A stretch of 64,000 nt of DNA from Malacoraja senta (Eukaryota). The notes under the pieces were generated by a model. The model did not search any database. It was not told the origin of the DNA and was given only the letters and a program-made list of their open reading frames with translations. Of the stretch, positions 11,079 through 64,000 are shown one piece after another; position 1 is the first letter of the stretch; each line of letters begins with the position of its first letter. Position numbers and translations under genes: made by a program. The DNA lies in assembly GCA_038087875.1 (NCBI GenBank), contig CM075993.1:3226001-3290000 (forward strand), read 5' to 3'.

Positions 11079-11556
11079 GACAGTGTGAGATGGGAAAGGT
11101 TTGAGTCTGAAGAAGGGTCTCAACCCTGAAACATCCTTCTCTCCAGAGATGCTGTCTGGCCCGCTGAGTTACTCTGGCTTTTTGTGTCTATCGAAGGTTT
11201 AATAGGATCCCGAGGGCCATTTTATTTCCACAAAGAATGTCTTTTTTTTACATTAACCCTAATGGGTATATGAACCGAGCTGCCAGAGGAGGTCATTGCG
11301 ACTTCAAAATGCATGAACACAAAAATCCCTAAAATTTGAAGGCATCCAAATGAACACTAGAGGGCCTCAACGCTACACACTTCAGATGTTAATTTTCCAA
11401 TTCAAAGTTAGAAAAGCTTGGAAGTCTTATAATGAGATTGCAATTCTTAAAGAACGAGGTGAGTAAGCAATCCTTACTTAGCCGCAGCGCCCTATTGCCG
11501 CCCATTTTGCGTGATCAATTGAAATATAGAGCATGGAAACATGCCCTTCGGCCCAT

Positions 11557-13383
11557 GAAGAGAGATTAGTTAAAACAAATGTAGGTCCCTTGCAGTCAGA
11601 AACAGGTGAATTGATCATGGGGAACAAGAATATGGCGGACCAGTTGAACAACTACTTTGGTTCAGTCTTCACTAAGGAAGACATAAATAATCTGCCGGAA
11701 ATAGCAGGGGGCCGCGGGTCAAAGGAGATGGAGGAACTGAGTGAAATCCAGGTTAGTCGGGAAGTGGTGTTGGGTAAATTGAATGGATTAAAGGCCGATA
11801 AATCACCAGGGCCAGATAGGCTGCATCCCAGAGTACTTAAGGAAGTAGCTCCAGAAATAGTGGATGCATTAGTGATAATTTTTCAAAACTCTTTAGATTC
11901 TGGAGTAGTTCCTGAGGATTGGAGGGTAGCAAACGTAACCCCACTTTTTAAGAAGGGAGGGAGAGAGAAAACGGGGAATTACAGACCAGTTAGTCTAACA
12001 TCGGTAGTGGGGAAACTGCTAGAGTCAGTTATTAAAGATGGGATAGCAGCACATTTGGAAAGTGGTGAAATCATTGGACAAAGTCAGCATGGATTTACGA
12101 AAGGTAAATCGTGTCTGACGAATCTTATAGAATTTTTCGAGGATGTAACTAGTAGAGTGGATAGGGGAGAACCAGTGGATGTGTTGTATCTGGACTTTCA
12201 GAAGGCTTTCGACAAGGTACCACATAAGAGATTAGGATACAAACTTAAATCACACGGTATTGGGGGTTCAGTAGTGATGTGGATAGAGAACTGGCTGGCA
12301 AACAGGAAGCAAAGAGTAGGAGTAAACGGGTCCTTTTCACAATGGCAGGCAGTGACTAGTGGGGTACCGCAAGGCTCAGTGCTGGGACCCCAGCTATTTA
12401 CAATTTATATTAATGATCTGGACGATGGAATTGAAAGCAACATCTCCAAGTTTGCGGATGACACTAAGCTGGGGGGCAGTGTTAGCTGTGAGGAGAATGC
12501 TAGGAGACTGCAAGGTGACTTGGATAGGCTGGGTGAGTGGGCAAATGTTTGGCAGATGCAGTATAATGTGGATAAATGTGAGATTATCCACTTTGGTGGC
12601 AAAAACGGGAAGGCAGACTATTATCTAAATGGTGGCCGATTAGGAAATGGGGAGATGCAGCGAGACCTGGGTGTCATGGTACACCAGTCATTGAAAGTAG
12701 GCATGCAGGTGCAGCAGGCAGTGAAGAAAGCGAATGGTATGTTGGCCTTCATAGCAAGAGGATTTGAGTATAGGAGCAGGGAGGTTCTACTGCAGTTGTA
12801 CAGGGTCTTGGTGAGACCACACCTGGAGTATTGCGTACAGTTTTGGTCTCCAAATCTGAGGAAGGACATTATAGCCATAGAGGGAGTGCAGAGAAGGTTC
12901 ACCAGACTGATTCCTGGGATGTCAGGACTTTCATATGAAGAAAGACTGGATAGACTTGGCTTATACTCGCTAGAATTTAGGAGATTGAGAGGGGATCTTA
13001 TAGAAACGTACAAATTTCTTATGGGGTTGGACAGGCTAGATGCAGGAAGATTGTTCCCGATGTTGGGGAAGTCCAGGACAAGGGGTCACAGCTTAAGGAT
13101 AAGGGGGAAATCCTTTAAGACCGAGATGAGGAAAAACTTTTTCACACAGAGAGTGGTGAATCTCTGGAACTCTCTGCTACAGAGGGTAGTTGAGGCCAGT
13201 TCATTGGCTATATTTAAGAGGGAGTTAGATGTGGCCCTTGTGGCTAAAGAGATCAGGGGGTATGGAGAGAAGGCAGGTACGGGATACTGAGTTGGATGAT
13301 CAGCCATGATCATATTGAATGGCGGTGCAGGCTCGAAGGGCCGAATGGCTTACTCCTGCACCTATTTTCTATGTATCTATGTA
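11557..13383 (+). mobile_element. Young 5'-truncated CR1 LINE (HER1-like) with uninterrupted RT domain (ORF to 13290)
   Basis: RT motifs KSPGPD, NYRPVSLTS, DFQKAFDKV, GVPQGSVLGP, KFADDTKL; endonuclease absent; 3'UTR ends in TCTATGT repeats; nested inside a minus-strand SINE. Confidence 0.97.
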
Positions 13384-14560: not shown

Positions 14561-17072
14561 CGAGAGTGTAGCGACAGGATGAAAAATTTGGATAGCATAG
14601 AACTAGTGCGAACGGGTGATTGATGGTCAGTGTGGACTTGGTGGGCCGAAGGGCCTGCTCCCACGCTGTATCTCTGAACTAAACAAAATGCCTTTACCCC
14701 AGTGGGAACAGATGGTTCCGTTGTTAGTCTGTATCTTTCATTTCCCGGCTCTGTCTGAAGAAGGGTCTCGGCCCGAAAAACATCACCTATTCCTTTTCTC
14801 CAGAGATGCTGCCTGACCCGCTGGGTTCCTCCAGTATTTTGTGTCCATCTATAATACAGCACAGGAGGAGACCCTGCAGCCCATGATAAATTGGAAGCGT
14901 TTATTTGACTGTAAAATCTTACCTTGATTAGTTGGTTGCCTTTGAATTAGAAAGAAGCCTCCCTGCTTCAAACAGTTTAACTTGGCGTTTCCAATAAAGA
15001 ATGGTTATACATTCATTCTGCTGCCATCTGGTGGGCACATTTGTAAAAAAACAGCCTTTCATAAATTTGGAGAGAATGAGGAGCAGGGAATGGGGGTGGG
15101 AGTTGGATGTGGTGAGTTGAACAGCAGTTTTCGAGCAAGATCATATGTGATAGGAGCAGAATTAGGCCATTCGGCCCATCAAGTCTATTCCGCCATTCAA
15201 TCATGGCTGATCTATCTCTCCCTCTCAACCCCATTCTCCTGCCTTCTCCCCATATACCCTGAACTAATCAAGAATCTACCCATCTCTGCCTTAAAGGTAG
15301 TTCACCTTCAGCTTAAAGGTGTTCAGCGAAACGATCGCCCAGTCTACTTTTTGATGAGATCCTAATCTCTGGAATTCCCTCCTCAAACCGTTCCATCTCT
15401 ACTGATCAGCACAGACCCTTCATCAGTCTGAAGAAGGGTCTCGACCTGAAACGTCGCCTATTCCTTCTCTCCATAGATGCTGCCTCACCCGCTGAGTTTC
15501 TCCAGCATTTTTGTCTACCTTTGATTTTTCCAGCATCTGCAGTTCTTTCTTAAACTTTTATATGGAGCGTTACTGTAATGAAGACAGAACAGGATGAAGT
15601 CCTTCAAAGCATTCTTTATTTAACTCTGCCATACCAATAACATACAAAAAATAAATGCAATTTAATAAAATGTAGTTAAGTCTATGTATTGCACAGACAC
15701 AATATTTAGTCCTTTATGCTTTGCAAGCATTTGCCTGTACGGTGAAACTTCAAATGTTTCAGAAACCATTTAGCAGAGTGCATTTTTGCAATTCATTCGA
15801 GCTTCCACAGAACACAACACACAGTTATCACATTCAATGTTCTTAAATATATCCACATCAATGTTCACAGAAATATCTGGTTGAACTAGTCTAGAGATTT
15901 TAAACTTCTATGTATACAAAATCTTGCTTGGACAATCTTGCAGGGTCTTTGACCCTGACTGCTTCTTCAAAGGGCAACATGGGAATGAAAAGTTTAAGAA
16001 GGAACTGCAGATGCTGGAAAATCGAAGGTGGACAAAAATGCTGGAGAAACTCAGCGGGTGAGGCAGCATCTATGGAGCGAAGGAAATAGGCTGCCACAGG
16101 TCTCGACCCGAAACGTCGCCTATTTCCTTCGCTCCATGGATGCTGCCTCACCCGCTGAGTTTCTCCAGCATTTTTGTCTACCTGGGAATGAAAAGAGACA
16201 CTTTTCTGCTGGAGTAACTCAGCGGGTCGGGCAGCATCTCTGGGGAACATGGATAGGCGACATTTTAGGTCGGAACCCTTCTTCAGACCCATCCCAAAAT
16301 GTCGCCTGTCCATGTCCTCTAGAGATACCTTCTGACCCGTTGAGTTACTCCAGCTCTATTTTTTTAAATGTAAACTAGCATCTGCAGTTCCTCATGTCTA
16401 CAAGATCATGAGAATGCCTTTTTATCTTAAGACTATCTTAGCAATCGCTCGCATTGCAGTAGATGTCAGCATTGCAAATTATGAACCGGCCTCATTTCCA
16501 AAAACTAATCCATCAAAATGCATGTTCCTCTTACTCCCATCTCTCTCCCCCTAAAAAAATGCCTTCAGTTAGTTTGGAACGGGCTGTGACCTTGAGCAAG
16601 GTCCACCACACAGCATTGGCAGCAATGAACCGATGATCAGGGACAACACTAGTCTAATTGAAGGCATCCTTTCAACCTCAAGATGACAAGCATATTTACC
16701 CAACTGGAAACTGGCACCAGTTCTAATCTCTCGATCACTCCTCTTCTCGTTAACTCACCTCCCATCTTTCTCAGGAAAAGTATCCCAAAATCACGACAGC
16801 ACCATATTTTAGTGTGTCAAGCACTCTGAACTTAACGGCGTGAACAGACTGCTGGTATAATCAGAGCGCTACACATCTTGACCTTGCATTCTCCACTAGA
16901 TGTGGTACAAATGCCACTGATACCAAGTGCTAAATAATCCAGCCGCTAAAAGCAACTGTGTATGAAGTGCAACACTGTTCTGTGCAAACAGTTCAGTCAA
17001 CCTGTGCAAAAAGCAAATGCTCAAAGCTTGGGTAACACATCTGCCGAACCGTAACGCATTTTTAATGGGTTA

Positions 17073-17402
17073 TAGCCCTGTCCCACGGTACGAGTTCATT
17101 CCAAGAGCTCTCCCGAGTTTCAAAAAAATCAAACTCGTGGTAAGCACGGAGAATGAACGTAGCGGGTACGTCGGAGCTCGGGGACGTCTCTGAGCGGCTC
17201 GTAACGCTAAGGGCAGGTACTCGGGAAGACTCGCTAACGGCAGGTAAGCACGGGAAGACTCGTGAAGATTTTTCAACATGTTGAAAAATGTCCACGAGAG
17301 CCCCGAGTACAGACGAGTGGCCATTACCGTAAATCTCCGTGTTCGAATCAGGGCAAACTCGGGAGAGCTCTTGGAATGAACTCGTACCGTGGGACCGGGC
17401 TA
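17073..17402. mobile_element. PIF/Harbinger-like MITE, subfamily B
   Basis: ~48-bp TIR TAGCCCTGTCCCACGGTACGAGTTCATTCCAAGAGCTCTCCCGAGTTT; TTA on both sides (17070-72, 17403-05). Confidence 0.85.
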
Positions 17403-17976
17403 TTAGGGTGCGAGACGCTTAGAGATTTCCACATTCACTGCCCGAGCGGAATTGCAGCACGGGATCATACAGGCAAGTTCCAAAGGACGAGTTGATTGAC
17501 AAAATAACTGCACTACATCCAGGGAAATGTCCGCATTTGTAAATAGGGATTCATTGTCTATACATATTGGTCACCTCTCCTCAACTAACATCACGATCTT
17601 TTCACGATTCGCATAAATCGCGTTCTATAAGTACATTCAATGATTCAGCAGAGTAAACCGCATTTCAGCTTGCAGTATTCTCTGTAATAAGTGGAAGCAC
17701 AACAGCTATGAGCAAAATAAAGATTCTCCTGTCATTAAATATCGATGAACAACACAAACATGGCTTTTGGCCCTCAGCTTTTTTTTTACTTGACCTAAAA
17801 GAGGGAGATAAAACTAGGAGCCAGAGTCAAGCTCTGCGACCCATCGTATACTGGTTGCCACAATGACTCACTCCTTATGCACACACAGCAAGGCAGAAAA
17901 CACAATACAGGACTTCCAATACCACTCACTGCTGATTCGCTGCCACTGCAGCGCTTTGATGAAAGGAGAAGCGGAA

Positions 17977-22600: not shown

Positions 22601-22758
22601 TTACTGCACAGTACAAGAGCTTTCCGCCTGGCAACAGGCACAGACTGTAGAGGTAAGAGGCTTGGGGGAATCAGGTCAAGATCTTCGTCGTCTGGGATTT
22701 CGTCCAGGTGATAGCCGTCTTTCAGGAGCTGACGGTTCAGGTCCTGATTCACTTGCTG
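22601..22758 (-). CDS. FAM219B: FAM219B exon 6 coding part (QQVNQDLNRQLLKDGYHLDEIPDDEDLDLIPP[K]PLTSTVCACCQAESSCTVQ*), one base missing at 22664-22668
   Basis: Invariant FAM219 core LDEIPDDEDLDLIPP; adding one C restores the Cys-rich tail and the CaaX-like CTVQ with stop TAA at 22603-22601. Confidence 0.93.
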
Positions 22759-26603: not shown

Positions 26604-26725
26604 CTATAAATGAAAGAAAAGGAATAAAGACATAATGGGTAAAACAAACTAAATGTTATTAAAACCAGCACTTCCCCTGTTGACTTCTTTGGGTCTTTTA
26701 CTTGAATTTGCTCAATTGTGAGTTA

Positions 26726-27211
26726 AGGGCCTGCCCCACTTGGCCGTCATTTGCGCCTCATTTACGCGTCATATGTAAAATAGGTCGACGCGTCGTGATG
26801 CGCGACGTCGTGCACAAATCACGCGTCAACACAGCCGTCTGGAGCGCGTGACGTCATTAGAACACCCTGCGGCGCGCGGAAAGACATTGACGCAAAACGT
26901 AAGGACGTGACGCACGATGACGTAACCATGCGTCACCACGCGATACATGTGAGACGTCGGGACGCCAGTGTACGACGCCAATGCGTCAGCGTGCATACCC
27001 AATGCTTCAGCGTGCGTACGCGATACGCAGGTGGCGCGCGAGGATTTTGTTCCTGTACTAAATCCTGGAGTACCGCGTGCCACCGCATACGATTCCACGG
27101 CTTACGCATGCGCACCCAACGCATGCGCACCCAACACGTCACGACGTGTCGACCTAATTTACATATAACACGTAAATGAGGCGCAAATGACAGCCAAGTG
27201 GGACAGGTCCT
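26726..27211. mobile_element. PIF/Harbinger-like MITE, subfamily C (CpG-rich)
   Basis: Long imperfect TIR AGGGCCTGCCCCACTTGGCCGTCATTTGCGCCTCATTTACG; TTA on both sides (26723-25, 27212-14); many internal TGACGC/GCGTCA motifs. Confidence 0.85.
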
Positions 27212-36918: not shown

Positions 36919-38444
36919 CTCGATCTTCTATTAGAAACTCTCCATCGTAGAATGCTGCCAAGACAGCATTTAGCCATTTAAATCCAAGGAGGCTTTCTTC
37001 AAAAGCAGCTGCATCTGGTTCTACAACCTGGCCCCATTCCAGGCAACCAAGCGATTGCTTTTCATATTTAACATAACTTTTCACAACCATGAGTCAATGT
37101 ACCTCTCAGCATCTCAACTTGCCAACAGGAATGTCAACAACTATCAAAACAAAACAGCCGCATAAAACCTGAGACACAAGGAACTGCGGATGCTGGAACC
37201 TTCGGCAAAACACAATTACTGGAAGAACTCAGCAAGTTAGGCAGCATCTGTAGAAGGAAGTGGACAGATGCCCCATTTTGGGCAGGGCCCTTCTTCAGTC
37301 TGATTGTAGTAAGTGGTGGTGGGGGGGGAAGAGGTGGTACAAAGTCAGACGAGTGATAGGTGGAGATAAACTCAAAAAGCTGGAGTAACTCAGCGGGTCA
37401 AGCAGCATCTCTGGAGAACATGGACATGTGATGTTTCGGGTCGAGACCCTTCTTCAGACTGATTAAGGTTGGGGGGAGAAAGCTGGAAGAGCGGTAGTGG
37501 TGGGACAAATCCCAGCAAGTGATAGGTGGATGCAGGCAAGGAAGGGGGTTTAGCGGGACATGGGTCAAACACAGGAAAGTGGGACTAGTCAAGATGTGGC
37601 ATGGACAGGTTGGACCAAAAGGCACGCTTCCACAGTGCACGACTCCATGAGACAAAAAGTGTGAGATGCGGAGATAAGCATTGAAGAAGCGTGAAATGTG
37701 ATGCCGGAGGAAGGAATACGTCTAAAAGGGGACGGGGTGGAAGGGACAGGGAGAAATGTGCATCCGGGTGGGACACCGATGCTGCCCGACCCACTGACTT
37801 ACTCCAGCACTTTGCATCTTTCTTTGTAAACCAGCAAGAGAGAGTTAGATAGAGCTCTCGGGGCTAGTGGAATCAAGGGATATGGGGAGAAGGCAGGCAC
37901 GGGTTAGTGATTGGGGACGATCAGCCATGATTACAATGAATGGTGGTGCTGGCTCGTAGGGCTGAATGGCCTCCTCCTGCACCTATTTTCTATCTGCAAT
38001 TCCTTGTGCCTGCTTTTAAAATCAAGTAAATTATGCATAAAGATAGACTCAGAACATCTGTTGTGAACAGTTTTAGCAGAATATTTTAAAAGGTGTTTTC
38101 ATTTGCAAGAAACAAGACTCCTCTGATTTTATGGGACCGTAAAGATGATAATCGCAGCTTTGCATTCTGCAGCTATCGTTAAAGGTTTAAAGTTCGAGTG
38201 CAACAGAAGTGCTAATGAACCATTTTCCAGGAGAGATGTTAATTACTGCTTTTAGTGTGTTCATGCGGCACAAAAACACCTCGAGTGCAGATTCAGCAGC
38301 TGCAATCAGCCGTCTCCACCCAAACTCATCAAGGATTTGCAGGTTAATTGGATAGTGCAGAAGTGACTTGCTCCAAGTATTCAAGATAACAGTGTCAAAT
38401 AAAACTCCACAACTAGTCTTATAGTAAGACTAGTCTCCATCAGT

Positions 38445-41562: not shown

Positions 41563-41625
41563 CGAGGGCCCGGGTTGCTGCGGCAACGCGACGTCCACCG
41601 GCCGCTGAAGCTCCGCCGCCTCCAT
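41563..41625 (-). CDS. FAM219B: FAM219B exon 1 (MEAAELQRPVDVALPQQPGPS)
   Basis: gcgATGG Kozak-like start in a CpG island; gtaatg donor; 63 nt, phase 0, fits exon 2; the poorly conserved N-terminus is assigned by position and phase. Confidence 0.7.
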
Positions 41626-41639
41626 CGCATCACATCGCC

Positions 41640-42280
41640 CCGCGCTCGGCACTTCCGGTCAGCTGACCGCGGCAGCGGCTCCGCCCCTTGGTGACGTGAA
41701 ATAGACCCCGCCCCTGGTGACGTAAAATAGAGACCCCGCCCCCTAGTGACGTGTCATATAGACCCCGCCCCCGTGTGACGTAAATAGAGACCCCTCCTCC
41801 TAGTGACGTAACCTAAAGACCCCGCCCCATGATGAGGTTAACTGGAGACCCCGCCCCCCTGGTGACGTAAAATAGAGACCTCGCCCCCTAGTGAGGTATC
41901 CTATAGACCCCGCCCCCTGGTGACGTAAAAGAGACTCCGCCCCTGGCGACGTGAACTAGAGACCCAGCCCCCTGGAGACGTAAAATAGAGACCCCGCCCC
42001 CTGGTGACGTATGATGGACACAACGACCGCCCTCCCAGAAACGTCATTATGTCCCCGCCCTTCATGACGCGTGATGGAATCCCCGCCCCTCGGTGACGTT
42101 TACATGAAATCCCGCCCTTCTGTGATGTGTACGTGAAACCACGCCCCTCTCTGTGACGTGTCTTACAGTCCCCGCCCCCCCCCGGTGATGTATACATGTC
42201 CCCGCCCCCCGATGACGTCGCGGAGCTCGGCCCCCGCCCCGTTGACGTGTATTGGAGACCCCGCCCCTCTGTGACGACCC
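41640..42280 (-). promoter_or_regulatory. FAM219B promoter: ETS-type site (CACTTCCGG 41650) plus tandem array of ~21 GC-box/CRE-like units (~29 bp)
   Basis: Repeating gaCCCCGCCCC-N3-5-gTGACGT unit starting ~55 bp upstream of the ATG; CpG-rich. Confidence 0.75.
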
Positions 42281-45200
42281 ACGCATTCCCCCCCCCTCCC
42301 GGGTCCTAGCGCCCACCCTCCGGCTCAGCATCAGCTCAGCTCCCCCGGGTCCTAGCGCCCACCCTCTCTCTACACCCAACTCTCTCATCTCCTCCACCCT
42401 CTGGAGAGAAGATACAGGAGCTGAAAACCTCATATGTCCTCTACGGGTGTCAGAGGTCATGGGGAGGTGGCAGGAGAATGGGACTAGAAGGGAGTAATAG
42501 ATCAGCCGTGACTGAATGGCGGAATAGACCTGATGGGCCGAATGGCCTAATTCTGCTCCTATCCCTTACGAACATGATTTAAGAACAGCTTCTTCCCCAC
42601 TGCTATCAGACTCCTGAACCCATCACACCTTTCACATCGATGATAGACACAAAATGCTGGAGTAACTGTCTGAAGTGATTGATCTTCAGAAGGGTCTCGA
42701 CCAGAGATGCTGCCTGTCCTGCTGAGTTACTCCAGCATTGTGTGTCTATGTTGAATGAGAATTTGTTTCTTTCTGCCATCTAGTGCCCAGTTGAAGAACA
42801 GCGTCAGCAGAATCACTCAACATGGACAAAGACCCTTCGGCCCCACTGAGTTTGTGTCAACCATCAAACGTCCATTTACATTAACCCATGTTTACACCAA
42901 CTCTATGTTCTACTCTGTCCATATTCTCCTCCACGCCCCCAATATTTATCACACGCCCCCTCATGCAACAGACAAGATTTGTTATATTTCATTATCTCAT
43001 CGTTTCATTAAGAATGTTTTTTATTGTATATGACCCAAAATTCTCACTTGCAGCAGCACAACAGATATGTAGACAAAGTACTGTGTAAACACTATCATAA
43101 GCAACATAAAGAAGTTCACTATATCAAAAAACAATCAATAATAGTGGAAAGACAAAAGCAATGCCCCTGAAATCTAAGGTAGACAAAAATGCTGGAGAAA
43201 CTCAGCGGGTGAGGCAGCATTTATGGAGCGAAGGAAATCCTCACCCAAATCCTCATCCTCATCCAGCATTTTTGTCTACCTTCGATTTTCCAGCATCTGC
43301 AGTTCTTTCTTAAACAACCCCTCAAATCTATGTAGTTCAGAGTTTATTTGAGGTTGTGGTGTTTAATAGCCTGATGGCTGTAAGGAAGAAGCTGTTCCTG
43401 AACCTGGACGTTACAGTTTTCAGGCTCCTGTACCTTCTTCCTGATGGCAGGGGTGAAGTGAGAGCGTGGTCAGGGTGGTGTGGGTCTCTGATGATGCTGG
43501 CTGCCTTTTTGGCTCCTGTAGACTCCTGCAGATCCCTTCGATGGTGGGGAGGTCAGTACCCATGGACTGGGCAGTGTTCATCGCCTTTTGCAAGTCTTCT
43601 TCGTATGAAGTCGGACATCGGCACAATGAACGGCAGATGCTGGAGCCTTGAGCAAGAAACATAAAGTGCCGGAGTAACTTAGCAGTTCAGGCAGCACCAC
43701 TGGAGAACATGGATAGGCGACGATTCGGGTCTGGATCCTTATTCGGAGATGCTACCTGACCATCTGGGCTACTCCAGCACTTGTGTTTTTCCCTCCACTA
43801 AGGATGGGACCCAACCTAAAACGTCATATGCCCTTTCCCTCCACAGATGCTGCCTGGCCCGCTGAGTTTATCCAGCAGCTTTTTTTAATCACGATTCCAC
43901 ATCTGCGGTTTCTTGCATTTTCCGCAGTAATACACCGAAGTTTAGACACACCATTTGTCATGTTTTGTTTTGCTTTGAAGTAAATATGGTGAAATAAGTT
44001 GCAGTCCCACTCATCTGTTCTCATTCAGTAATCCCAGAGTGACTCACTATATTGGCTGGGACATTCAACAGAGTTAAAAAGTAATTTTGGAAATTCCCTG
44101 CCATTTTTCACATTAAGCACACAGACTGACTCTGTATCCTAACCACTGGACAACCAAATCCAACCTTGTCACCTCCCTACCTCCGTCTCCTCCTTTAGGT
44201 GCAGTGTCATGGACTCATACAATGTGGAAACAGGCCCTTTGGTCCAACTTGTCCCATCTCTACACTAATCCCACCTGCCCGCGTTTGGCCCAAATCCCTC
44301 TAAACCTGTCCTATCCATGCACCACTGCCATTGGGAAGGAGGTACAGGAGCCTGAAACCTGTAATGTTCTGGTTCAGGGACAGCTTCTTCCTTACAGCCA
44401 TCAGGCGATTAAACACTACAACCTCATATAAGCTCTGAGCTACATAGACTATTATTGTTATAATTAATATTATTGCACTATTATTTGTTTTTTGAGTATG
44501 TGTGTATATGTATGTGTGTATATATATGTATGTATATTAAGAATCAAGAGTTTATTGTCATGTGTCCCTGATAGGACAATGAAATTCTTGCTTTGCTTCA
44601 GCACAACAGAACATAGTAGGAATTGACTACAAAACAGATCAGTGTGTCCATATACCATTATATACGTAAATACACACATGAATAAATAAACGGATAAAGT
44701 GCAAATAACAGATAATGGACTATTAATGTTCAGAGTTTTGTCCGAGCCAAGTTTAATAGCCTGATAGCTGTGGGGAAGCAGCTATTCCTGAACCTGGTCG
44801 TTGCAGTCTTCAGGCTCAAATATATATGTGTACTTGTGAGAATGTGTTTATTTACACACACTGAACTTTTTTTCTCTCTCTCATTTATTATATTGTTTAT
44901 AGTGTACTATGCCTACATATTCTGTTGTGCTGCTGCAAGTAAGAATTTCATTGTTCTATCTGGGACACAGGGCAATAAAACACTCGTGAATCTCATCCTG
45001 TCCAATTATTTCTCAAATGTTGCAATAGTCCCGGCCTCAACTACCTCCTCTGGCAGCTCGTTCCAAACACTCATTACCCTTTATGTGAAAAATTTACTCC
45101 TCGGGTTTTTATTAAATATTTCCCCCTCAATCTTAAACCTTGAGTCCTCTGGTCCTCGATTGCCCTACTCAGGGCAAGAGACTCCGTGCGTCTACCCGAT

Positions 45201-54214: not shown

Positions 54215-54328
54215 TTATAATTTGTCTAGACCTATCTCCTCTGGGGTAGGAATTCCGAGTTCAGTTAGCGTGGGCCGGAGTTCTCGAATAACGTACGGAT
54301 AGATCTCTTTGTGAGGCCCGGCTTTATC
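54215..54328 (-). CDS. COX5A: COX5A exon 4 coding part ([37 protein letters not shown])
   Basis: Matches the COX5A C-terminus; ttttgcag acceptor; TAA at 54217-54215; a GTGAG donor 12 nt after the stop (exon end 54203) implies a separate non-coding last exon. Confidence 0.97.
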
Positions 54329-55718: not shown

Positions 55719-55840
55719 CTTGACTGCTTCGAGGATACGGATTGCACTAGCTAGATCATTTAATCTACGGCATGCTCTCAGGGCTGCATCAATAATGTTG
55801 GGTTCAGGAACCAGATCGTATCCAATGAGGGTGTTCATTC
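55719..55840 (-). CDS. COX5A: COX5A exon 3 ([41 protein letters not shown])
   Basis: Hallmark COX5A peptide; ttttactttcag acceptor, gtcagt donor; 122 nt, phase 1 to 0. Confidence 0.97.
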
Positions 55841-57808
55841 CTGAAAGTAAAATAGACATTCACTGCAGCAAAATCAGCAGAGGTTTTTCTTAAAACGACA
55901 ATTTTCAAAGAAATATCAAGCATTTAATGCAATGCAAGTGCACAATAGAATAGAAGGGACAGGGATCAGATTTGGGAAATTTAAATTGTGTGCTGCAAGG
56001 ACCAAGAATCCACATATGTCAAAGGCAGACACAAAATGCTGGAGTAACTCAGCGGGATGGGCAGCATCTCTGGAGACGTTTCGGACGAGACCCTTTTTCA
56101 GCGAGTCACTCCAGCATTTTGTGTCTACCTTCGTTTTAAACCAACATCTGCGTTCTTTCCTACACCAACATATGTCAGTCCCAGCTCAGACTGGCACAGA
56201 AGCGGAACTTGATTCAGGGTTAAATTGAAAAATTCCCAAATGGAACGCTGATCATTTTGTATTTCTTGCAGTTTACAGAAACAACTCCACGTTGAACCCT
56301 TTAACCCCCCCCCCCCCCACCACCAATTAACGGCCACCTATATCCCTCCTTCTGGCTCACATTTTACTCCTTCTCTCTCCTTATCTGACACCCTTTTCAT
56401 CTCTGTCCTTTGCCCACCTATCTGCCAATCCAAACACCTTCACTGTAGATGGACACAAAGTGTTGGAGTAACTCAACGGGTCTGGCAGCATCTCTGGAGA
56501 AAAAGAATGGGTGACGTTTCGGGTCGGGACCCTTCTTCGGATGGAACATCCCATACCCTTTTTCTCCCAGTGATGTTGCCTAACCGGTTGAGTTCCTTCA
56601 GCGCTTTGTGTCTACGTTTGGTTTCCACGAGCATCTGCTGTTCCTTTCTACACCCCTTCACTTGTATCCGCCTATCAGGTTCCAGCCCTTGCCCTGCCAT
56701 CACCTCCTTTCCAGCAACCTTTGCCCTACTATAATCAGGACCCCAACCTAAATGTCGCCGATCCATGTCCTCCAGAGATGTTGCCTGTCCCACAAGTTAC
56801 TCTGGGACTTTGTGCTAACTGTCCCCGCATTGAAAATAGTTACACAGCAGAATACAAACTGCATTTAGCGCCAACAGTTATCAATCCAAATTGGCTTGGA
56901 GCAGCAGTGTATGTCACACACCATACAGCCAAATCCAGTCTACTGGAGATAGACACAAAAAGCTGGAGTAACTCAGTGGGCCAGACAGCATCTCTGGAGA
57001 AAACAAATAGGTGAAGTTTCAGGACAATTCCCTTCTTCAGACCGAGTCATTCAGACTGCAGTTCCTCACTACGGATGTTCTTGCTCCAAAAGTCTCCAAC
57101 AAGAACTCAACCCCAACCAAGTGACCCTCTCACATTCTTAACGGATACAGGTGAACCTATGTCATCTACAAAATACACTTGCCACAAACCCACATGGTTG
57201 CTAATTCACACATCTCACTCAAAATAGCACATGAACAGACACTCACGTGGGCAAAAGCTCTGCCACACATTCACCTTGTTCCCACCCCGGCCAAATGTCT
57301 TGTTCGTTCCCACTGCAGGCAGTACCCAAATGACAGCTTCAGACAAACCACAATTACGGGAAAACAAACAGACTTCAGGAGAAAATTTGGAAGAAAAATG
57401 AATGGAGGTAAAATTCTCCTTTCACCTCCACAGGATCATAATGCACAAATGAACTGATCACCTGCTTTCAATGGGGCTTGTGAGGGGACGGGGATATTAA
57501 TTCACAACTTCACAAGTAAGAGGAGTAGAATTAAGCCATTCTGCCCATCGATTCTACTCCACCATTCAATCATGGCTCATCTCTGTCTCCTAATTTTCTG
57601 CCTTCACCCCATAACCCATGACAAAATTCAGATTTTTAATGTAAAAATAAATTTGTCATGATTCACATTACAATTCTTCTTCCAACTTTATTCAAACTGT
57701 AGTAAGGAAAGCTTGATTTTTGGACAATAGACATGGTCTATGAGGTTGAAACGTTCTCCGAGGGGCAGTGACATCAACAGGGCTATCCCAACAGATTTTT
57801 CTTTTTAC

Positions 57809-57926
57809 CTTTTCGGGAGCTCCCAGGCGTCGATGTCAGGCTTGTTGAAGTACGTCACCCAGCGGGCATCAAACTCCTCATCCGTCTCCTGCTTCCCATG
57901 TGAATACCATCGTGCAGCAAGGGCAG
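57809..57926 (-). CDS. COX5A: COX5A exon 2 ([37 protein letters not shown]..), with one extra base near the 3' end
   Basis: Translation matches the COX5A mature N-terminus; tttgacag acceptor and gtaaaa donor; 118 nt where 117 is needed for phase 1 to phase 1. Confidence 0.95.
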
Positions 57927-60900
57927 CTGTCAAAGAAATGCATGCTTCAAGCCCCACTGCAAAATCCTACTTTCAGCAACCAATATTTTCAATGGCGTAC
58001 TGCTCCACATACACTTGCTGCAGTTCTTTCATTTCATTAAATAATCATCTTACAGATAATTAAACAGATGGGACACCTAGTGACTGCCACCATTAATTAA
58101 TCCCATGCATTATTGTAATTTCCTCTTGCGGACATCTAGACCAAGGTCACAATTTATTTCCAGTCTCCAACGTGCAAAGCTGAGAATTCATCCAACTATA
58201 ACACAAGGCTGCTGTAATTTTATTTGTGAAATATTTTTAAGAACAGATGAGCACATTTTCCAGAGTATTAACAAGGAATTGAATTATCATAATTATCATT
58301 AACCCGTCTTGTGCAAAGAGAAAATCAAGCAAAGAGAAAATCAAGCCATGAACAAGACAGATGACCAAGAAGATTACAGTTTGTATCAGTTGCCAAACAG
58401 TTCCAAACTCAACAAATCAATCTCAGTTGAAGACTTCAAGATGTTAAAATGCAGATCATGATCAAAGATATTTCAGTGAAGGTTTACCATGTTCATTGTC
58501 CCATCCATATGACATATGACAATAAAACACTCTTGACGTCTGGACTGTAGAATTCTAAATTGCTCAATGGCAATTAAACAAGGTGACAGTAAACCAGAAA
58601 CATTTCAATACGTTGGCAAAATAAAAACCCTAACCTGATTTGGGGAGAGTGAGGAAAAAAAAAGATTACAACTGATTCAAATCAGAAACAACCTGTTTCC
58701 GATGTCCAGTTCCTCGCATGTTTCAAAAAGACTTCCAAATAACCTGGCCCCTGACAATTTTTGGTAGATTTTCTGGGGTGGAGGGGCACCCATGAAATAA
58801 AAGCAATATTATGCCAGATTTGAATTGTGTTCAGTAAACGAACCTTCAATGTTGGGAACAGGCACCTAATCCACAATTCTTCTCGACACTTAAAACAAAA
58901 GATTGCCTGTAGGTGTGACTTTTGAAATTAATCCGGAAAGCAAGAGATTAATCTCTTTTGGAACGCAATGCTGGATCAGCAACAATAAATCTTGCCCAAT
59001 TTATTACAATGCTCATTTTGAAATATAAGGAAACGTTAATTATTAAGAGCCAAGCCCAAGCAGTTTCCCCAGAACCGAAACAAAATAAACCCTCAACTTC
59101 CTTAAAATGCTTCAAATGAACAGTTTAAGGGCTCACCACCAATGCTCAGCATCTTAACAAATTCAAAGACCAAAAAGGGGTGAAATGCTTCATCAACCAA
59201 TATTTTCCAAACATTTGGGAGCAATCTTGATAAACATATTTAGAAAAATAATAGCTGATATTTCACTATTCAACGAGGCCTTTTTAAAAATTGCCATTTA
59301 TATGAATACTGGCAAATGCAAAACTCTACTTGAAGTTCCCAGAGAGCTTGAAGAACAGCCACTATACTTCACAGAATTTTACATCAGATTTCACATGGCC
59401 TCTGTGTTTCAATCTTCCCTTTGACACCTGACATTGATTATACAACATGGCCTGGAGACTTAATAAAGAAAATGCCAAGCACAAGCAACAACTCCAGTTG
59501 CAACCCAAGGCCTCAGAGAGGTACTGCTGTTTTTTACCTGTCCAGTACGCCAAGACATTTCGGGAATAATAGCTGTTCCAAGCAGCTCATGTATCCCACG
59601 CCTGGATACAGACCGATTCAATTAGCTTTCCAAAGTAAGGCATTAATATATTTACAACTGGACATGCTGAATTAATTTAACTATTCATTAACTGAAGTTC
59701 AGTCATTTCCTATTCACGCTAGTTTAACAAAGCACGGATGCCAACACAGTAATAAACCAAAAAAATATATTCGGGCATCCTCTCTATTTCAGAGACAGGT
59801 TCTTCATGGCACTGCAAAAAATAAAGAAATGTATCCTCTGAAATGTGTGAGTTGACTCATAAGGTGCTCATTCAGACCCACAGACTATTGAGCCTTCTAA
59901 GCCTGCTTTGCAATTTGATAAGATCATTGTTAATCTGATTGTAACCTCAACACAGTGTTATCTTCTAACTACAATAACCTTTCACCCAATAATCCACACC
60001 CACCTTAAAAATATTCAAGGACAGTTTCCACTGCCTCGTGTGAAAGTTTAAAATAATGCACGACCTTCAAAAACGTTAATCTATCCCAAAACAATCCTCA
60101 CTTCAAGAGTGTCCCCCAAACAGGAAACAATCAAATCAATATACCATATGGGACGTGCGTTTTAGATTCCATAAAAGTAGGAGTCTTTTTGACAATTTGA
60201 ATAGTGCTGCAGCATTGGTGGAAATGCCTTCAGGCCAGAAGTAAAAGACGACCTTGAAATATCCTTCCACAAATGCGGTGTTAATTTCGGCGTTTGCAGA
60301 CGGAGGTGGTGACAATTTGGAAATTCTAATGAAAACTAAAAGAGAATAATCTTCAAATCCCAATACATTAGTCAAGCACATCAGTCATTTCCCCAAAATA
60401 CACGGGCCTCTGTCGGGCGTGCCTTAAGTATGCAAACGCTGCATTCTGGCTAACGATTAAGACAGCATTTCATGGTTTCTCGGATTTCTAGTTTGCATCG
60501 TTCTTAAACCACCACAATCACCCAAGGGTCATTAAAGATGTACACAAGGTGACAGCAATACAGGGAATGGTGGAAGAGGGAGATGTGGACAAAGGAGGAT
60601 GCAAGGGGGGGGGGGTGGAAGATTCAATCCAATTATATCTGGGGTAAGATGGAACGGTATTCAGAAAGCCGGTGAATGAAGTCTGCAGGGACACAGGGAA
60701 GGTGAACGTAATGAGTGGAAGGTGACTGCAAGGAGAAAGGAAAAAGATAATGTACTACTACTACCAGCGGGGGGGGGGGGGGGGGTTTAACAGTGGGTGG
60801 GGCAGCTAACATTGGCTGGGCTGAAGATATCCACAAAAGAAGTGTTAAAGAAAGGAACTGCAGATGCTGGAAAATCGAAGGTACACAAAAATGCTGGAGA

Positions 60901-61691
60901 AACTCAGCGGGTGCAGCAGCATCTATGGAGCGAAGGAAATAGGTAACGTTCGGGCCGAAACCCCTTCTTCAGAAGTGTCAGCAGTGTGGCTAACGATTAA
61001 GACAGCATTTCATGGTTTCTCGGATTTCTAGTTTGCATCGTTCTTAAAGGAGGAGGTGGATCGGAGGGTTGGGTGGATAGGATACGGACAAGGGAGGGGG
61101 GGGTAGGGAGAACTGTCAGCTGTGCAGTGAGTTCAGGGGGGGGGGGGGGAGTGACCAAAGATGCTATAGGATCTTTGGGAGTGACTGTAGGATGATAGTA
61201 GGAGGGTGTGGGGTTGAGGGAGAAGTAGGGTGGAAGGTTTGGAGGGAGGTGGTGATAGAATTCAGCTGTGCAGTTGGATTGTGGGGGGGGGGGGGGGTGA
61301 CTACAAGGTGAGGAAGGTAGGGAGGAGTTGAGGGAGGGGGTGAAGGGGTGAGGCTAGCGGTGAGGAGGTAACGGATTGAAGGGGGGGGGGTGAAGGGGAG
61401 GGGTGGGGACCGCAGGGCGAGGTCGGAGGGAGGGGTGAGGGAGGTGATCACCGCAAGGTGAGGGTAGGGGTGAGGGTGAGGGGGTGAGGGCGAGGGCTAC
61501 AGCCAGTGGAGGCCGGCGTGTGGACCCGAGGTCTCCCCGCCCACAGGCCCGAGGGCCTACCTCTCCTGCCGCCGGGTCATTACAAGGACACGGGCCGGTG
61601 CGGCTGCAGCGGGCAGGGGGGGAGCTCGGGAGAGCCCGGGGCTGGGCTGGGGACTGATGCCGCCTCACACACACACACTCCCCCCCAGTGC

Positions 61692-61701
61692 CCGCCATTT
61701 T
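61692..61701. promoter_or_regulatory. YY1-like motif CCGCCATTTT at the start of COX5A intron 1
   Basis: Match to the CCGCCATNTT consensus ~40 nt into intron 1; the related CCGCCATT lies at the FAM219B exon 1 donor (41553-41560). Confidence 0.45.
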
Positions 61702-61741
61702 AGGGGGTCGCCTGTCACCGCCGCCTCATGCTGTCTCTCAC

Positions 61742-61862
61742 CCGCCGGCTGGGCCCGGGCCTGGGCTGATGGTGTCCCCCCTCTGGCCGCCGCCCTCCTC
61801 CAAGCGGCCAGGCCGCCTCTGCTGCTGCTGCTGCTGCTGCACCTCAGCGCCGCTCGGAACAT
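61742..61862 (-). CDS. COX5A: COX5A exon 1 (mitochondrial targeting peptide MFRAALRCSSSSSSRGGLAAWRRAAARGG...QPA)
   Basis: ATG at 61862 in a CpG-rich region; Arg/Ala/Ser-rich presequence without acidic residues; GTGAG donor after 61742; 121 nt, phase 1, compatible with exon 2. Confidence 0.88.
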
Positions 61863-61964
61863 GGCTGCTCGCCGGCTGCTCCCCGCTCCTCACGTGGCGA
61901 TCGCCACCGCCGCTGCCTGGCTGAGAGGAGAGAGAGAGAGAGAGAGAGTGCGCCCGCCTCCTGC

Positions 61965-62900
61965 ACCGGAATTACGTCACCCGCCCCGCACTAGATGTCA
62001 CTTCTTACCCTCTCCCCTTCCCTCCCGCCCCGCACTGACGTCACCCGACAACCACCTCCGGATGTCACTTCCTCCCTTTCCGTCACCCGCCCCGCACTGA
62101 CGTCACCCGACAACCACCTCCGGATGTCACTTCCCTCCCTTTCCGTCACCCGCCCCGCACTGACGTCACCCGACAACCACCTCCTGATGTCACTTCCCGC
62201 CCTTTCCCTCTCCCGCCCCGCACTGACGTCACCCGACCACCTCCCCCTGATGTCACTTCCCTCCCTTTCCCTCTCCCGCCCCGCACTGACGTCACCGACC
62301 ACCTCCCCCTGATGTCACTTCCCGCCCTTTCCCTCTCCCGCCCCGCACTGACGTCATCGCTCCCGCCGGCAGGATGTCATTTCCGCCCCCTTCCCCTCTC
62401 CCGCCCCGCACTGACGTCATCAGCCAACCTCCTCCTGATGTCTGAAGAAGGGTTTCGGCCCGAAACGTTGCCTATTTCCTTCGCTCCATAGATGCTGCTG
62501 CTGCACCCGCTGAGTTTCTCCAGCATTTTTGTCTACCTTCCTCCTGATGTCACTTCCCTCCCTTTCCCTCACCCGCCCCGCACTGACGTCTTCCGACAAC
62601 CTCCCCCCATGATGTCACTTCCCTCCCCCCGCCCCGCACTGACGTCATCCACCCGCCGGCAAGGACGTCACTTCCGCCCCCTTCCCCTCTCCCGCCCCGC
62701 ACTGACGTCAGCCCTCCCCTTCCCGCCGGCAAGGTTGTCACTTCCGCCCCCTGTCCCTCTCCCGCCCCGCACTGACGTCAACCCTCCCCCTCCCCTGACA
62801 CGGACGTCATTTCCGCCCCTCTGTCTCTCTCCCCACACACACACACACGTTGGCAACCGAAGACACTTCCGCCCCTCTCTCAAGCCCCCGCTTCCGGCAC
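61965..62900 (-). promoter_or_regulatory. COX5A promoter: tandem array of ~11-12 units (~62-63 bp), each with GC-box, palindromic CRE and ETS-core motif
   Basis: Unit CCCGCCCCGCACTGACGTCA...GATGTCACTTCC; TGACGTCA at 62036, 62098, 62161, 62224, 62287, 62349, 62412, 62640, 62703, 62773. Confidence 0.78.
62441..62538 (+). mobile_element. PLE-derived fragment inserted in the COX5A promoter array
   Basis: TCTGAAGAAGGGTTTCGGCCCGAAACGTTG...GTCTACC flanked by duplicated CCTCCTGATGTC. Confidence 0.85.
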
Positions 62901-63074: not shown

Positions 63075-64000
63075 TAAAGGTAGCAATGTTACAGAATTTT
63101 GAGATTTTAAAAAATAAAGTCTGCAAATTTATCCCATCAGATAAAGCATAAAAAGACGTTAATTTGACACCTAATTCACTTTCATATCTTCAGTATTAAA
63201 AAAGTTATGGCCATTTTCATACTCGGAAATTAGCATCTTGTTCCCTATTGCTTTTCCATTGACTTAACACAAAAGCTGTGATCGAGGACAGTTAAAAGGC
63301 CCATAACTTTCTTAAAAAATTAAGAGAACTGAAAGAAATGTTCAGTTATTATAGATTGAAGCATTCTAAAACAAACATGAAACAATCTTACTTAGATGAC
63401 ATGAAATTAAAGCATATAATTAGTTAGTTACCTAATTGTAGCTAATTACAAAATTCAATTACTAGATCTAAACATCTATCAATTTCTTAAGAATAGATGA
63501 ACATTTTTAAATAGCCTAAGTGTCCAAATAACATTCACACAAGAATTCACAATATAACATATTTTTAAATCTCATTGTCATGGATTTACAGGGCCAAATG
63601 GAAGGAAATGAATGTTTAATACCTGTAAAATTAATGGGCATTTAAATCATCTTGCGAGTGGGTTTTTATGGAACGCGATCATTTGGAACGTTGATTTGCG
63701 GTGAATTTAACCCCGTATCGGCATGACAAATACTGCTGTTAGTTCGGGGAAAATAATCACCGTTTCGCATTTAAAAATGTGAATTAAAGGCCTCTTAAGA
63801 AGCATTTTTATACATAAAATAAACTGCTTTCGTTTACCTGTCCAATGTGGTGAAATCCGTCCCGTTGTCGGCATTGACGGCTTTCGAAGCTGATTTCAAA
63901 TAACTCCAGCGCTGAACTTGTCGATCGAATAAAAATAAAAAATACACAAAACGCCCGTCGGAACGATTCTTCAGCAAAAGCTGGCACTCCAACGAAATAT
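63075..64000. repeat. AT-rich block, possibly a non-autonomous DNA element running off the window end
   Basis: Abrupt composition change, lacks the local SINE/PLE repeats, contains opposed AAAGTTATGG / CCATAACTTT motifs; no terminus pair visible. Confidence 0.3.

Follow-up and report, generated by a model that had tools for sequence, protein, structure and literature searches.

A promoter-proximal tandem array of GC-box and CRE motifs at skate COX5A and a separate array with this motif pair at the neighbouring FAM219B gene

Introduction

Reiterated binding-site modules are a feature of several viral enhancer-promoters, including the 19-bp CRE repeats of CMV, the 21-bp GC-box repeats of SV40 and the 21-bp CRE repeats of HTLV-1. 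Among cellular genes, the human promoter for the reduced folate carrier contains a polymorphic 61-bp repeat with Sp1/AP2 sites (PMC3899988), promoter repeats have been linked to both expression and methylation (PMC4857002), and in flies the birth of binding sites through local duplication has been described (PMC3188502). In addition, a composite motif in which an ETS site overlaps a CRE is bound by GABPA and CREB1 (PMC3464117, PMC4555227). Single promoter minisatellites carrying binding sites are a known phenomenon, and the new part of the present work is a multi-copy motif array together with its recurrence at the next gene. Our literature search, which had most subscription papers and genome-paper supplements outside its scope, gave no report of tandem motif-array promoters in cartilaginous fishes and nothing on the COX5A promoter itself; the word 'tandem' is absent from the main text of the little skate genome paper, as are 'promoter' and 'minisatellite' from the main text of PMC10620051.

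Here we analysed a stretch of 64,000 nucleotides from the skate Malacoraja senta (contig CM075993.1), referred to as the window, which carries the genes COX5A and FAM219B, both on the minus strand.

Results

The COX5A domain PF02284 was found in three of the four COX5A coding exons, whose boundaries show AG/GT ends (Table 1). A Pfam search with exon 1 itself gave no match; its predicted product would resemble a mitochondrial targeting peptide, and a (CAG/CTG)n tract at 61818-61840 gives rise to a run of six serines in this putative peptide. In run X18, which consists of spliced contigs, exon 2 is joined to exon 1 at a depth of 2167 in a contig that continues into exon 3, from which it follows that a related species splices exon 1. 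Exon 2 contains an extra base at 57815 (length 118 instead of the in-phase 117), which is missing from the contigs of runs X1, X4 and X12 and is an assembly error. FAM219B likewise holds a 1-nt frameshift in a C/G run, at about 22663-22668 in its last exon, which is probably an assembly error as well. As such C/G-run errors occur in the assembly, the distinction between unit lengths of 62 and 63 bp is unreliable and single-base details of the array need caution.

FAM219B comprises six exons from 41625 to about 22600, of which those following exon 1 were placed by tblastn at 35.5, 28.8, 26.6, 25.3 and 22.7 kb; a splice-pattern search found nothing for exon 2, but tblastn did locate it. The best named matches to a FAM219B exon (11 matches, 22 candidates) reached 91% for Rhinoraja, 91% for the ray Hypanus and 79-82% for sharks, and for exon 1 the Rhinoraja protein was the best fit among the named proteins tried.

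Table 1. Positions of the features discussed in the text, in window coordinates.
Feature	Position	Strand	Remarks
COX5A coding exon 4	54215..54328	-	PF02284, E 5.7e-8
COX5A coding exon 3	55719..55840	-	PF02284, E 5.9e-18
COX5A coding exon 2	57809..57926	-	Pfam PF02284, E 1.6e-6
COX5A coding exon 1	61742..61862	-	ATG at 61862; open frame, GT donor, phase fits exon 2
5' leader with (TC)n tract	61863..61952	-	from sequence; skipped as repeat in all four runs
Unit 1, degenerate proximal	61953..62023	.	GC-box-like, CCGGAA abutting TTACGTCA, intact GC box, AGATGTCA; aligns to unit 4
Units 2-12	62024..62834	.	CCCGCCCC-GCAC-TGACGTCA, then a pyrimidine spacer, another CRE-like site that overlaps an ETS-like core, and a C-rich spacer
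SINE-like fragment, 96 bp, inside unit 8	62443..62538	.	identical 13-bp target-site duplications at 62430-62442 and 62539-62551
Sole perfect ETS/CRE overlap 11-mer CGGAAGTGACG	62666..62676	-	unit 10
Eight canonical G-quadruplex (G4) motifs at unit junctions	62008..62768	-	8 of the 16 minus-strand G3N1-7 motifs of the window; predicted folding
Distal degenerate tail	62835..62900	.	(CA)n tract; ETS-like cores ACTTCCG at 62865 and TTCCGG at 62892
FAM219B coding exon 1	41563..41625	-	tblastn, skate FAM219B P0002, residues 1-23
FAM219B array	41681..42290	.	21 units of ~29 bp (TRF period 29; mean 29.0), GC box + TGACGT half-CRE; 56 bp upstream of ATG

Several further elements were noted around these genes. 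In run X1, COX5A exon 2 is covered by an additional, diverged contig (57816-57927) with nine other letters and three gap letters, and in the DNA-type run X4, which has a low-depth joint of exon 2 to exon 1, small insertions match this contig; the diverged sequence may be a processed COX5A retrocopy. Within COX5A intron 1, a stretch of ~60 bp occurs at 60442-60508 and again at 60988-61048, flanking a purine-rich segment and a SINE-like copy. An open frame of 586 aa at 11530-13287 on the plus strand encodes a reverse-transcriptase domain (PF00078, E 3e-32) and is probably a LINE copy, with related pieces near 10.4 and 33.6 kb. CpG-rich segments (o/e 1.0-1.4) of ordinary or low GC and without GC boxes at 17040-17460, 26720-27210 and 63500-64000 are probably young non-autonomous transposons; the one at 26720-27210 has apparent inverted-repeat ends, as seen by eye, and carries the only TGACGTCA of the window outside the COX5A array.

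The COX5A array is composed of 12 tandem units at 61953-62834, starting 91 bp upstream of the ATG, with lengths from u1 to u12 of 71, 62, 63, 63, 63, 62, 63, 172, 56, 63, 70 and 74 bp; blastn matches reach an array edge at 61953-61958. Tandem Repeats Finder (TRF) reported a period of 63 bp with 6.7 copies and 90% matches at 62022-62442, a period of 70 bp at 62628-62833 and sub-periods of 27-30 bp inside the array. Head-to-tail units in the range of 10-100 bp give this region the structure of a putative promoter minisatellite, and the transcription start site (TSS) likely lies in the leader between the array and the ATG. Unit 1, which resembles two GC-box+CRE-like halves, may be a relic of the founding promoter block. 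The 172-bp unit 8 measures 63 bp once its 96-bp SINE-like insertion is removed, a fragment with 95% identity to a copy at 38443 and 62 blastn matches within the window; a literature search gave no identity for this family. In a neighbour-joining tree of ten units, u2-6 and u9 stand apart from u7 and u10-12, and unit 8 is by eye closer to the u2-6/u9 lineage. As the lineages are interleaved along the array, unequal exchange between units appears to have taken place.

A GC box is present in all 12 units, a perfect CRE in ten and the ETS consensus CGGAAGT in two. The GC box closest to the ATG is degenerate and lies 91 bp upstream of it; for the closest intact one the distance is 118 bp. CCCGCCCCGCACT occurs in 12 copies (61980-62761). 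Ten of the eleven perfect TGACGTCA palindromes of the window fall inside the array, compared with 0.56 per window on average, and three at most, in shuffled sequences (n = 100), and further CRE-type sites of the array are one TGACGTCT and one proximal TTACGTCA. These counts bear out much of a preliminary description of the region, which had spoken of a tandemly amplified promoter module with ~11-12 units starting ~100 bp upstream of the ATG, of ten perfect palindromes plus one variant and of 62-63 bp between the first seven CREs (62, 63, 63, 63, 62 and 63 bp). Two of its statements stand in part: GTCACTTCC, ascribed to each unit, is found in nine of the 12 and absent from three, and an ETS core, likewise ascribed to each unit, has the consensus form in only two, the minus-strand tally being CGGAAGT in two units, CGGAAAT in two, AGGAAGT in one, GGGAAGT in six and a broken core in one. 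This core is overlapped by the second octamer of the unit (TGATGTCA, GGATGTCA, GGACGTCA or similar). While the geometry of an ETS/CRE overlap is kept in all units, the perfect CGGAAGTGACG was found in one of the 12, and we read the site as a mostly decayed ETS/CRE overlap and the ETS part as weak.

The first 19 bp of the unit, the GC-box+CRE block, are identical in all 11 CRE-bearing units, and even the most diverged units (73-86% identity) retain an intact core. Across the ten units that were aligned, with u1 and u8 left out, pairwise differences are 0% for both GC box and linker, 2.5% for the CRE, 7% for the ETS core and 14% for the second octamer, while the two spacers reach 33% and 23%, so that motifs change more slowly than spacers and linker overall (5.7% versus 24.7%). 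Variable columns number 5 of 29 in motifs versus 20 of 34 in spacers and linker (Fisher p 0.0009), and by parsimony the initial 20 of 63 columns account for one of 37 changes (if change were uniform, P would be 4e-4 for any window of this kind). These statistics are inflated, since the motifs served as anchors for aligning the units and the columns are non-independent. Taken at face value, the pattern of conserved motifs and variable spacers speaks for selection acting on the motifs; similar conservation could result from gene conversion that starts in identical blocks, and assembly error may lie behind part of the spacer variation. Since the 4-bp linker GCAC varies no more than the motifs do at COX5A, the conserved block does not consist of known motifs alone; at FAM219B the linker is variable.

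CpG islands are recognized as stretches longer than 200 bp in which GC content exceeds 50% and CpG o/e exceeds 0.6. The array, with a GC content of 0.65 and a CpG o/e of 1.03 over 921 bp, qualifies as one, the o/e of the whole window being 0.54. As a control for CpG decay, 38 SINE-like copies showed transitions at 18 of 343 CpG positions (5.2%) versus 50 of 1276 other C/G positions (3.9%), a comparison confounded by subfamily structure. Because CpG transitions are barely raised and TE-like pieces elsewhere in the window reach o/e values of 1.0-1.4, CpG richness is no proof of an unmethylated promoter.

Among the 21 units of the FAM219B array, CCGCCC occurs in 17 and TGACG in 14. Compared in pairs without gaps, the units mismatch at 8% of GC-box, 16% of half-CRE and 53% of linker positions; for the spacers, where indels inflate the values, the figures are 44% and 61%. 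The corresponding values for the nine distal units are 4%, 21%, 51%, and 63% and 67%. The array has a CpG o/e of 0.92 and no G4 motif in its body. Just upstream of exon 1, at 41647-41657, lies the ETS-type 11-mer CGGAAGTGCCG, a variant enriched at housekeeping genes (PMC3464117).

The COX5A and FAM219B arrays agree in the order of their motifs and in orientation to the gene. GC-box CG and CRE CG lie 13 bp apart in every one of the 11 CRE-bearing COX5A units and in 11 of the 21 FAM219B units; 16 of these 21 fall within 12-14 bp. All 24 copies of CCCGCCCC in the window lie inside the two arrays, and so do all GC-box..TGACG pairs (21/21), of which 30 Markov simulations predict 0.2. TRF reported no other array longer than 80 bp in the window, and the two occupy its only two zones that are both GC-rich and CpG-rich; blastn between them (word 7, E<1) gave zero matches. 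The chance of both long arrays abutting first exons is 1e-5 by a rough, post hoc estimate, and the recurrence amounts to two of two promoters in the window, which is a very small sample. The presence of a GC-box+CRE array at both promoters hints that the amplification of repeats may be how skates form ordinary promoters.

No other copy of the COX5A unit was found in the 64 kb of the window. The depth comparison spanned 57700-62085 and hence the first two COX5A units only; in the one 123-bp bin at 61963-62085 depth was 21.7 in X1, 11.5 in X4 and 4.7 in X12, against about 24, 24 and 9 in single-copy intron, with X1 being nearly identical to the window and not independent of it. Compared with the 1e6-1e7 reached by the SINE-like family at 60787-60933 in the same three runs, this near single-copy depth shows that the unit does not belong to the dispersed repeats of high copy number, although a few further copies are possible since short contigs may be filtered. 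The proximal part of the array seems to be present in two related species (organisms C and G), as judged from this single 123-bp bin; gaps aside, 124 letters separate these organisms from the window across about 1900 bp of intron. Run X18 had zero cover on 61963-62085, which was not taken as evidence on the TSS. In a metagenome scan the 20-bp core gave two single matches with an array at neither locus, which we ascribe to chance. A single exact 20-bp core was seen at 1001-1020 of contig L002, an unrelated, eukaryotic-looking contig, without an array around it.

Discussion

Any explanation has to account for a tandem, locus-specific array that stands before the first coding exon and whose motifs are conserved over its spacers. 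We consider it probable, with some reservation, that the array arose by local tandem amplification and serves a CpG-island housekeeping promoter as its upstream activating region. A founding block of 60-70 bp with GC box, CRE, decayed GC box and ETS/CRE overlap, of which unit 1 is maybe a relic, would have been copied upstream via slippage or unequal exchange, possibly aided by the G-quadruplex-forming junctions. Selection would then have retained the GC-box+CRE core in each copy, leaving the spacers, most ETS cores, the exact phase and the retroposon insertion free to change. In the resulting array, Sp/KLF and CREB/ATF sites would form a redundant cluster, joined by GABP/ETS as a minor partner, which would hold the promoter open and drive constitutive transcription with no need for a precisely phased complex, and FAM219B would have arrived at the same GC-box+CRE array from a different unit. 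Factors were assigned to motifs according to PMC3464117 and general knowledge; the same source describes motifs of these kinds as general proximal-promoter motifs.

Part of the evidence would equally suit a neutral minisatellite, in which the proximal one or two units do the work, the rest is a by-product of unstable, G4-prone sequence and the invariant block goes back to conversion or recent homogenisation. Eight G4 motifs mark the unit junctions, and G4 structures are reported to drive the instability of the human minisatellites CEB1 and CEB25 in yeast (PMC2673046, PMC3486850); u2 and u3 differ by zero substitutions, the unit lineages are interleaved, the insertion in u8 was tolerated, and short shark chromosomes are richer in simple tandem repeats (PMC10620051). 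We nevertheless regard neutrality as unlikely, since the distal FAM219B units keep GC box and half-CRE amid 63-67% spacer mismatch and without G4 motifs, and the core is intact in the COX5A units of only 73-86% identity. The agreement of the two arrays in motif order, orientation and modal 13-bp spacing, together with the 27-30-bp sub-periods at COX5A and the two GC-box+CRE-like halves of unit 1, might alternatively reflect one old mobile or satellite monomer of about 30 bp (GC box + CRE) that seeded promoters in the manner of the tandem promoter monomers of retroelements. Such a common source is improbable in view of the missing blastn match between the arrays, the depth of the proximal units, which is near single-copy and below repeat level, and the fact that terminal repeats or target-site duplications were not noticed around either array by non-systematic inspection.

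The preliminary description had further proposed that the period would place the sites on one DNA face and had linked the motifs to nuclear-encoded respiratory genes. Relative to u2, the phase of u3-u8 stays within 0.2 turn, whereas u9-u12 are off by 0.19-0.52 turn, so that one face holds for seven of the 11 CRE-bearing units and fails for the four distal ones, the phase being broken by the 96-bp SINE-like insertion and the 56- and 70-bp units. As the 29-bp period of FAM219B moreover corresponds to 2.76 helical turns, phasing is not required. A respiratory-gene rationale proved unnecessary, because the motifs are general and the GC-box+CRE pair is also amplified at FAM219B. A helically phased Sp/CREB/GABP array, specific to a respiratory gene and setting the output of COX5A through its copy number, could draw on the 62-63 bp of u2-u8, with u8 at 63 bp before the insertion, and on u7 and u10, which are both 63 bp long although their spacers differ; given the distal units, the equal design at FAM219B and a consensus ETS core in two of 12 units, we hold it to be very improbable. 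That the array is an assembly artefact is scarcely credible. Both genes of the window do carry a 1-nt frameshift, and none of the contigs examined spans the array, but divergence among the units reaches 27% and is tree-like, one insertion has perfect target-site duplications and the proximal units are covered in three runs by contigs; assembly errors may affect the length or number of the units, not give rise to the array itself.

Beyond an amplified activating region at COX5A, it is possible, though on balance doubtful, that CpG-island housekeeping promoters of skates, and perhaps of batoids or cartilaginous fishes, are commonly locus-specific minisatellites which converge on a selected GC-box+CRE pair with 13-bp spacing. 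If true, this would represent a promoter architecture common to the lineage, perhaps a defence of promoters in a genome dense in retroposons, as well as a natural mutational scan of Sp/KLF-CREB grammar, in which the diverged units reveal the constrained positions of the GC-box+CRE module. Two unrelated arrays that have only motif pair, orientation and spacing in common suggest a general and easily testable rule for housekeeping promoters, which would concern a slowly evolving, repeat-rich vertebrate genome. GC-rich repeated promoters of this kind would be easily missed in short-read assemblies.

The CMV, SV40 and HTLV-1 repeats resemble the COX5A array as reiterated CRE or GC-box modules upstream of the start, and differ from it in that the array is a cellular single-copy locus. 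With the reduced folate carrier repeat the array shares a GC-rich, promoter-proximal unit of about 60 bp with Sp-type sites, but at COX5A 12 multi-motif copies fill the proximal upstream region, the motifs are conserved over the spacers and the design recurs at the next gene; the human repeat is polymorphic (PMC3899988). In its way of working the COX5A array would be comparable to a promoter VNTR. The second site of every COX5A unit has exactly the geometry of the ETS/CRE overlap (PMC3464117, PMC4555227), with the CRE CpG, the ETS flank or both off-consensus in 11 of the 12 skate units. Like the CEB1 and CEB25 minisatellites (PMC2673046, PMC3486850), the COX5A array has a G-rich strand with G4 motifs in most units; unlike them, it is situated at a promoter and contains conserved binding motifs, and the FAM219B array lacks G4 motifs. 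As in flies, neighbouring sites in the skate arrays would have arisen by local duplication and then diverged, but whereas the fly duplications are statistical traces of up to about 50 bp (PMC3188502), the skate sequences are intact arrays of 10-20 copies at core housekeeping promoters.
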